From Dictyostelium discoideum (lineage: Eukaryota), in contig CM000153.2 in NCBI GenBank assembly GCA_000004695.1, positions 4,256,001 to 4,320,000 on the forward strand: 64,000 nt of DNA. Reading direction: 5' to 3'. The notes under the pieces were generated by a model. That model had not been told where the DNA came from, searched no databases, and saw only the letters and a list, made by a program, of their open reading frames with translations. The stretch's first letter is position 1. Every line of letters starts with the position of its first letter. Made by a program: the position numbers and the translations under genes. Shown piece by piece: positions 26,916-40,647 of this stretch.

Positions 26916-28908
26916 ATGAAACCAATAGTATTATTAATTTTAATTATAAATTTATTATTGGTTATAAATTTAGTTAAAAGTGATGAAAGTTGTTATTTAT
27001 TAAAACAATCATTATTATTTTATAAAGCTCAAAGAGCAGGTAGATTACCAGATAATGATATTCCATGGAGAGGTAATTCAGTATTAAATGATAAGAGTGC
27101 AGGTTCATCAGTTGATTCAAATGGTGATGGAGATTTATCAAAAGGTTATTTCGATGCTGGTGATGGTGTTAAATTTAACTTTCCAATGGCTTATTCAATG
27201 ACAATGTTGGGTTGGTCCTATTTAGAATATTCTGGAAATATTGAAAAATGTGGTTTAGCTTCACTTTATAAAGAAGTTTTAAAATGGGGTACAGATTTCT
27301 TAATTGCATCACACACATCTGATAATGTTTTTGTAGTTCAAGTTGGTAATGGAGATGTTGATCATTCAGTTTGGCAACCACCAGAAGATATAAACTATGT
27401 CCGTCAAATTTATACCATTGATCCAAGTAATCCAGGTACTGATATTGCAATGGAAGCAGCATCAGCATTGTCAGCAGCATCATTAGTATTTAAAACAAGC
27501 GATCCTACCTATTCAGCCAAATGTTTACAACATGCTCAAAAATTGTATTCATTTGCAATTACATCACAAATGAAAGTTTGTACTGCTTCCAATTTTTACC
27601 AATCATCAGGTTATTGGGATGAAGTTACCTGAGGAAGTATTTGGTTATTCAAGGCAACAAATAATCAAACCTATATGAATAATGCTGCTTTATATTATAC
27701 CTATGATAATACTAGATATGCAAATGAATTTAGTTGGGATAATAAAGGTGTTGGTGCAATGTTATTATTATATCAATTAACAGGTGAATTAAAATATAAA
27801 GATAATTTAGAAGCTGCATTTAATGTTTGGCAACCAGGTAGTACATCAAATGTTATTACATATACAAAAGGTGGTTTAGCTGTAAGAATTTTTTTTTTTT
27901 TAAAAAAACTTATTAATTTACAAAAAAATTTACTAGAATACTAAAACTTTTTTTTTTTTTTTTTATTTTTAAAAAATTAAGTGGTTACGTGAATGGGGTC
28001 CATGCCGTTATTCATTAGTAATGGGATTCCTTCAATCTGTTTATTCAATAAAAAATGGAGGTGATTCAAAATATAATACATTTTATAAAAGTCAATTATC
28101 ATATGTTGTAGGTAATAATACCAATAAGCAATCATTTATTACAGGTTATGGATCAAAAGCACCAAAAAATCCACATCATCGTGCTGCTCATCATTCAACA
28201 ACTAAAGGTAAATTATTAAAATATTAATAATTCTTTTCCAATTCTATAGAGTTAATTTTTTTAATTTTATTAATATTTTTAATTTTTTTTTTTAACATCA
28301 TCAAAGATATCAATAATCCAGTAAATAATACATATCAATTACCAGGAGCTTTAGTTGGAGGACCAGGAAAAAATGATGAATGGTCAGATGATAGATCAAA
28401 CTATGTAACAAATGAAGTTGCATTGGATTATAATGTTGGCCTTGTTGGATCACTCTCTGCATTTGCAACTGGTTCCGAAGCAACCTCATCTTCAACTGGT
28501 TCAACAACCCCATCAACCACTTCAACACAATCAACAACTGGTTCAACCACTACTTCACAACCAACAACTGGTTCTACTACTGCATCTCAATCTACAACTA
28601 GTTCAACTACTGGAACTCAATCAACAACATCAAAGACAACAGCTTCCACTACAGGTTCTCAATCAACAACTACATCTACTACGTCTCAATCAACAACTAG
28701 TTCATCTCAATCAACAACAACATCAAAGACAACAGCTTCCACTACAGGTTCTCAATCTACAACTACATCTCAGTCCACAACAACTTCAAAACTTGGTGAA
28801 TCAGAATCTGATGATCATCTTGGTGACTCTGTTTCCTCATTCATTGGAAGAGCTGATTCAGTTTTGTTAATATTACTTTCATTAATTTCTTTGATTTTTA
28901 ATCTTTAG
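26916..28908 (+). CDS. Glycoside hydrolase family 9 endoglucanase (celA-like cellulase) with an in-frame TGA at 27630..27632; possible pseudogene; exons 26916..27881, 27982..28207, 28307..28908
   Basis: Signal peptide [18 protein letters not shown]9 blocks: [33 protein letters not shown] and a DHSVWQPPE acid/base region. There is a Thr/Ser-rich C-terminal linker and a hydrophobic tail. Introns are GTAAGA at 27882 to AG at 27981, and GTAAAT at 28208 to AG at 28306. The conserved Trp (...DEIAWGSIW in the paralog) is TGA here (...DEVT*GSIW). Confidence 0.6.
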
Positions 28909-29651
28909 AAAAAAAATTTTGTAACAATACATTGAAAATAATAATAATAAAAAAAAAAACATATTTATTAATTTTGGTTTTATCTAAACCTAATATTTTA
29001 TTTGTTTTTTTTTTTTTAATTTTATTTAATTCTTATTTTTTTATTTTATTATTCCCTAAAGAGAACAATTCAAAGTTTTTTTTTTAACTTTATTTAATTT
29101 TTTTTTTTTTTTTTAAAAATAAAAATTAATAATTAATTTATAGATTATGATTTTTTCTATTTATTATAAAATGAAAGTTTAAAAAAATAAGCGAAGTATG
29201 CCCAAATTTTTTTTTTTTTTTTTAATTTTATTTTTAATATAATCATTCTGTTTTTTTTATTCTTATTTTAAAAATGATTTAAAAAAAAAGACAAAAAAAA
29301 AAAAGATTTAATTATTTATCATTTTTTATTTTGAAAAATGACGAGAGGGATAGGGGAATACAATAAAAAAATAGATATCAAAAAAAATGATAAGAATTTT
29401 TTTTTTTAGAATTTAATTATTTAACTAAAAAAAATTTGGAAAACAGAACCATTGAATCTTTTTTTATTTTTACATTCATTTTTTTTATATTTTATATCAT
29501 TTTTAATGTTCTATTTTTATATAATAATCCAATTAAAAGATTTTTTTTTTTTTTTTTTTAACAAATTTGGATGTTTCTTTTATTAGTTTTAAAAAAAAAA
29601 AATAAAATAAAATATTAAAATAAAATAAAGATAAAATAATAAAAAAGAAAA

Positions 29652-29682
<31 letters not shown>

Positions 29683-29900
29683 TCTAAAAATTTCGTACTC
29701 ATTCCGGAGTGCTCGACTTTCGATCTTCATGACACACCCGAATTTATTTTTATTTTTATTTTTTTTTTTTAAAAGTTTATTTTTTTAATTTTTTATTTTT
29801 TATTTTTTTTTTTTTTTTTTGTTTTAAATTAAATTTTAATTTCAATTCATTTTTTTTTTTTAACAAATAAAACAATTATTAAAATAAAAATAAATATAAA

Positions 29901-30175
29901 ATGTCATCTGATAAAGGAACTGAAAGTATGTATTATAAATTTACTATATTTTTTAATTTTTTTTTTTTTTTAAAAAATACTTATTATTTTTTTTTTTTTT
30001 TTTACAAGATAAACCAAAAACCATTAATTTTAATGATGAATTAGATAAAAAAGGTTCTTTCATACGTGTTCAAAGTTCATTCCGTAATTTTATTTCATCA
30101 AATCCAGATGCAGAGTTTAAACCAGAAGCAAATCGTTATCATATTTATATCTCTCTTGCTTGTCCAGTAGGTATT

Positions 30176-30207
<32 letters not shown>

Positions 30208-38775: not shown

Positions 38776-38805
38776 TTATTTTAAAATTTTTTTTTTTAAA
38801 TAAAT

Positions 38806-38844
<39 letters not shown>

Positions 38845-38973
38845 ATTGTCAATTTAAAAAAAAAAAGAAAAAAATTTAAATTAAAATAAAATTTTTGACC
38901 AAGACCCGCAACCAAAAAAAAAAAATAAAAAATAAAAAATTGTTTGTTTGTTAATTTATTTTATTTAAATAGT

Positions 38974-40644
38974 TTAAAAAATTACAATCAATGTTAATGA
39001 TATCAACAATAGAAGTAAACCATTTATATTTAAAAATGATGATCCACCAATAAATTCTTTTTCATCAGAACCTTCGAAATCATTGTTACCTGTTAAAGTA
39101 CCAATTGAAGAGGATGGGTTTGGTTTTTTGGTGGAACCCATTGTGGTTAAGGAAAAAGAGGTTGTAGAGGTAAAAGTTGATGAAGTTGATGATTGAGTCG
39201 CAGAAGTAGTAGTAGTAGAAGTAGTTGCAGTTGTGGTTATTTCTAAATCATAAGAAATAAATGGTATTGATGGATCAGAAATATATGAAGCAACAACACC
39301 GACTAAACCAATATTATAATCTAATGCTACTTCATTTGATTCATAATTTGATCTTGTATCTATCCATGATTCATTTAATGGTGGACCACCAATCAAAGCA
39401 CCTGGTAGTTGATAAACATTATTTATTGGTTGATTAATATCTTTGGTTGTAGAATGATGAGCAGCACGATGATGTGGATTTCTTGGTGCTTTTGGTCCAT
39501 ATCCAGAAATGAATGATTGTTGTTTTGGATTCTCTCCAAGAACATATAACAATTGATTCTTTGCAAATGTTGAATATTTTGTTAATTCACTACCACCTGT
39601 TTTTGTATAAATTGATTGAATTAAAGCCATATTCATTGAATATCTTGCTGATGCCCATTGTCTTAACCAAGCTAAACCACCATTTGTATATTTAATACCA
39701 CCATTTGGTAACCAATAGTTGAGAGAATTTTCAATTTTAGTTTTATAATCTTGTTCTTTGCTTAATTGATATAATAGTATACCAACACCTAATCCTTTAT
39801 TATCCCAACTGAATTCATTTGCATAACAAACTTCATTGTTATTTAAATAGTATGATTTTGAATTTGTTAAATAATTTTGAGAGTTTGTTGCTTTGTAAAG
39901 CCAAATTGAACCCCATGCAATTTCATCATTATAACCACCTGATTGGTAAAATTCAATAGCATTTCTAATTGTATCAGTATACTTTTTCATTGGTGAATTC
40001 ATAGCAAAATCATAAAGTTTCTTTGAATGTTCTAAACATAGTTGAGAGTATGCTGGATTACTAGTTTTAAATACAATTGATGCGGATGATAATGCTGCAG
40101 ATGCCTCCATTGCAAGATCAGTACCTGGGTTATTGGAATCGATAGTATAGATATCACGAACATAGTCTATATTTTCTGGTGGTTGCCATACGTTATGATC
40201 AACATATGCATTACCAACTTGACCAATAAATACATTATCAGATGTATGTGATGCAATTAAGAAATCTGTACCCCATTTTAAAACTTCTTTATAAAGTGGA
40301 GACAAACCACATTTTTCAATATTTCCAGAATATTCAATATAAATCCAACTTAACATTGTCATTGAATAAGCCATTGGAAAGTTAAATTTAACACCATCAC
40401 CAGCATCGAAATAACCTTTTGATAAATCACCATCACCATTTGAATCAACTGATGAACCTGCACTCTTGTCATTTAATACTGAATTACCTCTCCATGGAAT
40501 ATCATTATCTGATAATCTACCTGCTCTTTGAGCTTTATAAAATAATAATGATTGTTTTAATAAATAACAACCATTATCACAATTAATACAATTTAAATTT
40601 ATTATTAATAATACAAATAAACCTATTAAATTAATTAATAATTT

Positions 40645-40647
<3 letters not shown>
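38974..40647 (-). CDS. Glycoside hydrolase family 9 endoglucanase (intact, intronless paralog of 26916..28908) with Thr/Ser-rich linker and hydrophobic C-terminus (GPI-anchor-like)
   Basis: 557-aa ORF. Signal peptide MKLLINLIGLFVLLIINL. It carries the same GH9 blocks ([41 protein letters not shown], DxR...E C-terminal catalytic region), a TTTATTSTTTTSATQSST linker and a hydrophobic tail LLLLLISLTLIVIF. The first roughly 330 nt of coding sequence are about 98% identical to the + strand paralog. Confidence 0.85.

Follow-up and report, generated by a model that had tools for sequence, protein, structure and literature searches.

The stretch analyzed here, referred to as the window, comprises 64,000 nucleotides (nt) of Dictyostelium discoideum contig CM000153.2 (assembly GCA_000004695.1, positions 4,256,001 to 4,320,000 of the forward strand). 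It is sequence of the AX4 type, as the neighboring glutathione S-transferase (GST) and acetyltransferase genes are identical to DDB_G0286341 and DDB_G0286283. Within it lie two predicted family 9 endoglucanase (GH9) genes, one on each strand, which we call the + copy and the − copy. In the current study, we compared these two genes with each other and with their counterparts in other dictyostelids. We found that a short segment at the 5′ end of the mature coding region bears the marks of repeated exchange between the copies, and that the + copy of the AX4 lineage is interrupted by an in-frame TGA. The coordinates of these and the other features discussed are collected in Table 1.

Table 1. Features of the GH9 locus, in window coordinates
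Feature	Position	Strand	Details or basis
+ copy, predicted GH9 endoglucanase	26916..28908	+	exons 26916-27881, 27982-28207, 28307-28908
Intron 1 of + copy	27882..27981	+	GT..AG, 100 nt; codon 322
Intron 2 of + copy	28208..28306	+	GT..AG, 99 nt; codon 397
In-frame TGA	27630..27632	+	G>A from TGG (Trp); alignment with paralog and relatives; AX4 lineage only
− copy, intact intronless GH9 endoglucanase (predicted activity), DDB_G0286321 (XP_637831), 557 aa	38974..40647	−	identical to database protein
Putative core conversion tract, + arm	26991..27206	+	216 nt; codes for N-terminal GH9 segment including DAGD motif
Putative core conversion tract, − arm	40354..40569	−	− coordinate = 67560 minus + coordinate
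Shoulder of patchy lineage-specific exchange (putative), + arm	27207..27450	+	identity in AX4 90.5% over 27207-27332, about 82% up to 27450
Shoulder of patchy exchange (putative), − arm	40110..40353	−	identity profile, lineage comparison
Intervening gene 1, Xi/YqjG-like GST DDB_G0286341, 324 aa, 3 introns	29901..31138	+	Pfam, exact spliced product
Intervening gene 2, giant Asn/Gln-rich protein, 1671 aa in ACTFIT annotation	31649..36809	−	no Pfam domain
Intervening gene 3, 436-aa protein	37465..38775	−	no Pfam match

Both genes are members of family 9 by profile and by motif, and endoglucanase activity is predicted for each. Each covers positions 4 to 443 of the 444 in the Pfam profile PF00759, with E values of 7.9e-138 for the − copy and 3.1e-138 for the + copy when its stop is read as Trp, and each matches solved GH9 endoglucanases (8u49, 1ks8, and 1js4/T. 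fusca E4) at E values of 1e-100 to 1e-92. Both contain the motifs DAGDGVKF and NEVALDYN, which correspond in the alignment to DAGDHVKF and NEVAIDYN of 8u49. The dictyostelid enzymes thus share with the solved structures a full-length catalytic domain, the DAGD and NEVA(L/I)DYN motifs, and a Trp at the position where the + copy has its stop. Unlike the solved structures, they have a signal peptide, a Ser/Thr-rich linker, and a hydrophobic C terminus and carry no carbohydrate-binding module, and 8u49 has DAGDH where the dictyostelid copies have DAGDG. Translated across its two GT..AG introns, the + copy reads through 597 codons with exactly one internal stop, the TGA, and its predicted product consists of a signal peptide, the GH9 catalytic domain, the Ser/Thr-rich linker, and the hydrophobic C terminus. 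The − copy, DDB_G0286321, has served as a mound-stage developmental reporter or expression marker (PMC8538044). Our literature search found nothing on the + copy, nor on conversion or pseudogenization of either gene, with DDB_G0286321 appearing only as that marker. A first-pass annotation of this DNA had placed two GH9 genes about 10 kb apart in inverted orientation, and the full-length Pfam matches and a gap of 10,065 bp bear this out. It also described the genes as facing outward, which is wrong; the + copy runs rightward and the − copy leftward, so that the pair is convergent, with the 3′ ends facing each other. A tblastn search of the window recovered these two genes only and no third GH9 copy.

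Counterpart loci were retrieved from D. discoideum ACTFIT, ACTFIR, and ACTFIW; from D. cf. discoideum ACTFIY and ACTFIZ; from D. citrinum ACTFIV and ACTFIU; and from D. dimigraforme and D. firmibasis. They were located by exact-product lookups and through cluster members, and the + coding sequences were rebuilt from annotated spans and product lengths. The homolog search missed the + copies of ACTFIR, ACTFIW, D. citrinum, and D. dimigraforme, all of which were later found by exact lookup, so that the absence of a match is weak evidence. Intact + orthologs of 573 to 610 aa with the same exon structure are present in ACTFIR, ACTFIW, ACTFIZ, D. citrinum, D. dimigraforme, and D. firmibasis. The two introns of the + copy fall at the same codon positions in every genome in which the gene was recovered (7 of 7). 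They range from 77 to 342 nt in length between conserved exons; intron 1 accounts for the upper extreme, at 342 nt in D. dimigraforme versus 77 to 100 nt in the models for AX4, ACTFIR, ACTFIW, ACTFIZ, ACTFIV, and D. firmibasis. The predicted introns of the + copy agree with the earlier gene model, which reads through with the one stop, and have good comparative support. The − copy had likewise been called intronless, consistent with the identity of its span to DDB_G0286321, and it lacks introns in all six genomes in which it was recovered. The contrast between an intron-free − copy and a two-intron + copy suggests either that the former originated by retroposition or that its introns were lost by way of a cDNA intermediate.

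In AX4, the two copies are most alike over a core of 216 nt (26991-27206), where they are 98.6% identical and differ at only three positions, 27048, 27092, and 27131. Codon alignment of the signal peptide (the first 75 coding nt) gives 63% identity. Downstream, identity falls through the shoulder listed in Table 1, such that the 342 nt from 26991 to 27332 are 95.6% identical, with 15 nucleotide and 6 amino acid differences, and over the remainder of the catalytic domain the copies share about 62% of their residues and about 70% of their nucleotides. Sites specific to one paralog flank the core at 26985-26988 and 27209-27210. Synonymous divergence between the copies rises from 0.047 in the core to about 0.76 in what remains of the catalytic domain; where the two proteins have the same residue, the codon is also identical at 65 of 67 in the core versus 133 of 182 downstream (Fisher p = 6e-6). 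A repeat finder reported the inverted-repeat arms as 26931-27585 and 39975-40629 (655 nt, 85%), and all of the other long inverted “repeats” of the region proved to be A/T low complexity. Identity is thus clustered at the 5′ end, as the first-pass annotation had proposed, and the uniform identity that it named as grounds for refutation was not seen. Its description was less accurate in the particulars. About 98% identity with a couple of differences is true of the 216-nt core but not of the first 330 or so coding nucleotides (the figure for about 340 nt being the 95.6% given above); near-identity does not begin at the first coding nucleotide but at 26989-26991, beyond the signal peptide; and the 65 to 70% protein identity that it gave for the remainder exceeds the value we measured for the catalytic domain. 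As a separate observation, the − copy contains a hypervariable low-complexity insertion within its catalytic domain, at about 39585-39600 (residues ~353 to 358). This insertion is GGSE in AX4, a long Gly run in ACTFIR (locus L007, 19394-21094), and poly-Asn in D. citrinum and D. dimigraforme.

Comparison with the relatives reveals that the core and the remainder of the gene have different histories. When neighbor-joining trees were built from the 3′ 798 nt, the + and − sequences were split in 300 of 300 bootstraps, which places the duplication before the divergence of all these species. With the 216-nt core, that split appeared in none of 300. Instead, the + and − sequences of D. dimigraforme paired with each other in 290 of 300 bootstraps, and all eight D. 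discoideum sensu lato (s.l.) sequences, from both paralogs, grouped together in 282 of 300. The same reversal is apparent in pairwise identities. Within a genome, the + and − cores are 98.6% identical in AX4, 97.2% in ACTFIR, 96.8% in ACTFIW, 96.3% in D. dimigraforme, and 94.9% in D. citrinum ACTFIU, while orthologs of different species are 89 to 93% identical over the same segment. Outside the core, paralogs are only 68 to 70% identical versus 81 to 89% for species-level orthologs. We also counted diagnostic sites. The core contains no site that distinguishes the paralogs and 12 species-diagnostic sites that are common to both of them (3 marking D. discoideum s.l., 3 D. citrinum, and 6 D. dimigraforme). 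In 501 nt of flanking coding sequence (the signal peptide and the next 426 nt of exon 1), there are 56 paralog-diagnostic sites and no shared species-diagnostic ones. The core and flanks differ with Fisher p values of 9e-10 for the paralog-diagnostic and 4e-7 for the shared species-diagnostic sites. A Sawyer-type runs permutation test was significant in all four pairs to which it was applied (p = 0.0025 in AX4, 0.0002 in ACTFIR, 0.03 in ACTFIW, and 0.0008 in D. dimigraforme).

The extent of the exchange also appears to vary between lineages. D. dimigraforme has a second patch of 92 to 98% identity across AX4 codons 141 to 180 (equivalent to 27336-27450), and D. citrinum has a patch of 97% identity across AX4 codons 111 to 140 (equivalent to 27246-27335). 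In AX4 itself, the − copy carries +-type bases at 27099, 27101, and 27236, and the + copy carries −-type bases at 27111 and 27259; these may hint at conversion private to AX4, in short patches and in both directions. Taken together, the shared derived sites, the switch in topology, and the differing patches exclude both purifying selection by itself and a single chimeric duplication. What the comparison of these genomes shows is best read as a series of repeated, short, and independent conversion events in at least three lineages. The earlier suggestion of a recent gene conversion tract or a chimeric duplication is thus upheld in part. Conversion is supported by the drop in synonymous divergence and by the topology switch; a single recent event is not, and a chimeric duplication is contradicted by the derived sites that the paralogs share in three lineages.

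A single historical event, be it a chimeric duplication or one ancient conversion before the species split, with the arms independent ever since, deserves somewhat closer attention. Over the 5′ 450 nt, identity between different paralogs of different species equals that between orthologs (the core of D. firmibasis + and that of D. dimigraforme −, for example, are 88.9% identical), which indicates that the homogeneity of the arms goes back to the common ancestor, just as such an event would have left them. However, arms that had evolved independently thereafter should yield a core tree that is star-like or that follows the paralogs, not one in which the D. dimigraforme copies pair and the D. 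discoideum s.l. copies group, nor should each of three lineages have acquired shared derived sites of its own and patches at its own positions. We consider a single event very improbable. Purifying selection alone, whether on protein, codon usage, or mRNA, is scarcely credible: across all dictyostelid GH9 homologs, the N-terminal segment is better conserved than any other part of the protein, and paralogs of different species are still 85 to 90% identical in the 5′ segment, but selection cannot make paralogs within a genome (95 to 98.6%) more alike than orthologs between species, nor can it confer lineage-derived sites on both paralogs in the core and none in the flanks, and the synonymous sites have been homogenized as well.

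How might recurrent conversion have been kept to so short a segment? We envisage that a GH9 gene was duplicated before D. discoideum, D. citrinum, D. dimigraforme, and D. firmibasis separated, giving a convergent pair some 10 kb apart, and that most of each copy then diverged and evolved independently. The 5′ region of the mature protein (a core of about 220 nt, with patches reaching up to about 450 nt) would meanwhile have been homogenized repeatedly by short, bidirectional, non-crossover interlocus conversion, presumably through homologous-recombination repair with the paralog as template. The 5′ boundary of the tract, at 26989 in all lineages, coincides with the junction of signal peptide and mature protein, and it may be that spread in this direction is blocked by the unrelated signal peptide and promoter sequences, which would offer no homology for extension of the heteroduplex. 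In the 3′ direction, the tract probably fades where divergence has removed the homology needed for strand invasion; the introns of the + copy lie far downstream and hence do not form its boundary. Slow divergence of the constrained segment, which includes the DAGD catalytic-base motif, could in turn preserve homology for further rounds of conversion. Both the recombination mechanism and the reason for the confinement of the tract are inferred. Finally, a single G-to-A transition on the lineage to AX4 would have changed a conserved Trp codon of the + copy to TGA, creating a null allele.

The in-frame TGA had been recognized in the first-pass annotation opposite a conserved TGG (Trp) of the paralog, and alignment confirms this. 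When position 27632 was compared with other genomes, TGG was found in 7 of 7 other + orthologs, including those of ACTFIR and ACTFIW, where the flanking codons are identical to those of AX4, and in 6 of 6 − copies; the Trp is conserved in solved bacterial GH9 enzymes as well. The stop truncates the product at 238 aa, upstream of the catalytic-acid motif NEVALDYN, whose Glu is thus left untranslated, and the truncated protein should be inactive. No relaxed constraint and no further lesion was found in the AX4 + copy. There is no frameshift and no second stop, indels are confined to the Ser/Thr linker and preserve the frame, and the AX4 + branch carries 8 synonymous and 9 nonsynonymous changes, with 9 and 9 on the branch of the intact AX4 − copy. 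Such an absence of decay beyond the TGA itself is in keeping with a lesion of very recent date. Among the genomes examined, the TGA is real and restricted to the AX4 lineage. Its distribution indicates that it arose after that lineage had parted from the one leading to ACTFIR and ACTFIW, be it in the wild or in the laboratory.

Instead of being private to the NC4/AX4 lineage, the nonsense allele could be common in ordinary wild D. discoideum and so amount to a loss of the gene across the species. The other retrieved genomes that are labeled D. discoideum differ from AX4 by 2 to 3% in these coding sequences and so are not close wild relatives of AX4. Moreover, pseudogene status that varies between strains has been reported for the tgr genes (bioRxiv 10.1101/2025.10.22.684067). 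Against this, the gene carries no further lesion and constraint on it is not clearly relaxed, which points to a very recent origin of the stop. A common wild allele is therefore, in our estimation, unlikely but to be kept in mind. As for the two divergent genomes, ACTFIR and ACTFIW, their loci (L005, L007, and L008) are 86 to 94% identical to window positions 29000-50800 over 20 kb of alignment, and mean diversity in D. discoideum has been put at 0.3% (bioRxiv 10.1101/2025.10.22.684067); judged from these alignments, the two may belong to a divergent lineage.

Of the three origins that had been offered for the stop, a very young pseudogene and a strain-specific nonsense allele both fit these findings, and the third, a sequencing error, does not. 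A stop that is one base removed from TGG in an otherwise undamaged gene is admittedly what an error in sequencing or assembly of an intact AX4 gene would look like. However, the + gene of ACTFIT (GCA_054883475.1) is identical to that of the window over 1993 bp, TGA included. Across 20.8 kb, 4 substitutions and 9 indels separate ACTFIT from the window; every one of the indels is a deletion in ACTFIT, and 7 of the 9 are shortened homopolymer runs. Such a pattern is expected of a de novo assembly of long reads and not of a sequence copied from the window, so ACTFIT is an independent sequencing of the same lineage, and a sequencing error does not account for the stop. The gene is also split in two in the ACTFIT annotation, and the AX4 protein set contains no product of the + copy, nor is the repaired 597-aa sequence present in the protein collection. 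We give an error almost no credence. The split itself is an annotation artifact, which presents the + copy as proteins of 238 aa (KAM9942101.1, L003 10001-10717) and 344 aa (L003 10760-11993); the locus is better marked as a single interrupted gene.

It is just as improbable that AX4 still makes a functional enzyme by reading the TGA as selenocysteine, by reading through it, or by splicing it out. D. discoideum does have selenoprotein machinery, and 48 frame-preserving GT..AG spans can formally be drawn across the stop. Nevertheless, an Rfam scan of 26500-29900, which takes in the gene and its 3′ flank, returned no selenocysteine insertion sequence (SECIS)-like match at E ≤ 10, only sub-threshold snoRNA-like noise, and the homologous residue is Trp everywhere and never Cys or selenocysteine. 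Likewise, the shortest among the spans listed would delete 56 conserved codons of the catalytic domain that are exonic in every ortholog. Both selenocysteine recoding and splicing around the stop were rejected on these grounds.

We think it highly probable, then, that recurrent 5′ interlocus conversion and a very recent AX4-lineage nonsense allele in the + copy together explain the locus. Several observations weigh against this explanation or limit it. The AX4 + and − cores pair with each other in only 77 of 300 bootstraps, and the roughly five informative sites on which AX4-private conversion depends might also reflect the sorting of polymorphism present in the ancestor. For D. citrinum, core identity within the genome (94.9%) only slightly exceeds that between species (91.7 to 93.1%). 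No other part of the protein is as conserved as the 5′ segment, and purifying selection adds to its low divergence and sharpens the look of a tract. For D. firmibasis, neither a protein match nor an anchor for the − copy was found. Finally, ACTFIR and ACTFIW differ from AX4 by about 10 times the species mean, so that the age of the TGA and its frequency in the population are only loosely bounded.

The genes between the two cellulases had been given as a GST-Xi, a giant N-rich protein, and an F-box-like protein lying in a configuration prone to inversion. The GST label is correct (DDB_G0286341, with Pfam support); in this case, identification relied on exact reconstruction of the spliced product and cluster lookup, as the homolog search gave no Dictyostelium ortholog amid the huge GST family. 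The F-box-like label is not sustained, since neither the 436-aa protein nor the giant protein has a Pfam match at E ≤ 0.01. A crossover between the cellulase arms would flip the three intervening genes along with the 3′ 85% of both cellulases. Yet in the loci that span both copies (AX4, ACTFIR, ACTFIW, ACTFIY, and D. dimigraforme), the +-type body always lies toward profilin and the GST, and the −-type body toward the acetyltransferase. The same order fits the loci recovered in part from ACTFIZ, both D. citrinum strains, and D. firmibasis. No inversion of the segment between the arms was found in the five spanning genomes, and the proposed proneness to inversion thus gains no support.

Other rearrangements were observed nearby. 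In each of the five D. discoideum s.l. genomes, the GST gene alone is reversed when compared with D. citrinum, D. dimigraforme, and D. firmibasis (window 29901-31138; L001 12070-13398, L009 10001-11345, and L010 10001-11337), a small local inversion whose breakpoints lie elsewhere than in the cellulase arms. D. citrinum and D. dimigraforme possess an additional, diverged profilin gene in the interval from the giant gene to the 436-aa gene (L009 2684-3143, L010 1520-2287, and L011 4062-4591; about 67% nucleotide identity to window 22216-22708), an interval in which D. discoideum has no gene. In D. firmibasis, an extra gene of 1306 aa (L001 13739-17787) separates the GST from the giant gene. A small gene with tandem ETDHS repeats lies upstream of the + copy on the opposite strand (24297-25017), and its ACTFIT counterpart (L003) contains an internal direct duplication of about 80% identity (7226-7479 versus 7445-7695).

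Partial concerted evolution by interlocus gene conversion is familiar from the human fetal globin genes HBG1/HBG2 and from the inverted hsp70 pair at Drosophila 87A7. As with those genes, the cellulase tracts occupy part of the gene only, the paralogs are more alike within a species than are orthologs between species, and the topology switches along the gene; as at 87A7, moreover, the pair is inverted and only non-crossover outcomes are seen. The cellulase pair differs in that the tract is very short (a core of about 220 nt), leaves out the signal peptide, and joins a partner with introns to one without, and in that it has been kept in at least three dictyostelid species while nucleotide divergence over the other 85% of the gene has risen to about 30%. 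In having a disabled copy near a functional paralog and a tract that is still exchanging, the locus also recalls CYP21A2/CYP21A1P and GBA/GBAP1. Here, however, about 420 nt separate the TGA from the core tract, identity around the TGA is about 65%, and no harmful transfer was observed; at such identity, DDB_G0286321 is unlikely either to receive the stop or to serve for its repair. Closer to home, the paralogs of the Dictyostelium tgr family intermingle in trees, which has been taken as interlocus conversion, and tgr genes that are pseudogenized in AX4 are intact in other strains (bioRxiv 10.1101/2025.10.22.684067). The organism group, the interlocus conversion, and the AX4 pseudogenes intact elsewhere are thus held in common, but diversifying selection acts on the tgr genes, which are hypervariable and serve in recognition, while the cellulase tract is a conserved enzyme core on which conversion has a homogenizing effect. 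The mechanism is ordinary partial concerted evolution by interlocus conversion, and current understanding is not challenged by it.

One further, more speculative possibility is that the tract is a long-lived conversion hotspot through which the null + copy still rewrites the DDB_G0286321 protein, and that the TGA is of NC4/AX4 laboratory origin. A possible instance of such rewriting is the Ala of AX4 at residue 63, where other strains have Pro. We regard this scenario as doubtful; if it were true, AX4 would lack a cellulase of wild D. discoideum, and developmental cellulose remodeling in the reference strain could be affected.

On a practical level, short reads or probes from the first 220 to 340 nt or so of the mature coding region cannot separate the two genes, and one interrupted gene is displayed in the ACTFIT annotation as two spurious ones. 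For the biology of these organisms, the locus appears to offer a case in which about 220 nt of two paralogs are kept nearly identical across several species by conversion while the rest diverges. The AX4 reference, moreover, carries a presumed null allele of a predicted GH9 cellulase that is intact in all of the other-lineage genomes examined, and in the matter of cellulose remodeling it may therefore misrepresent the species.

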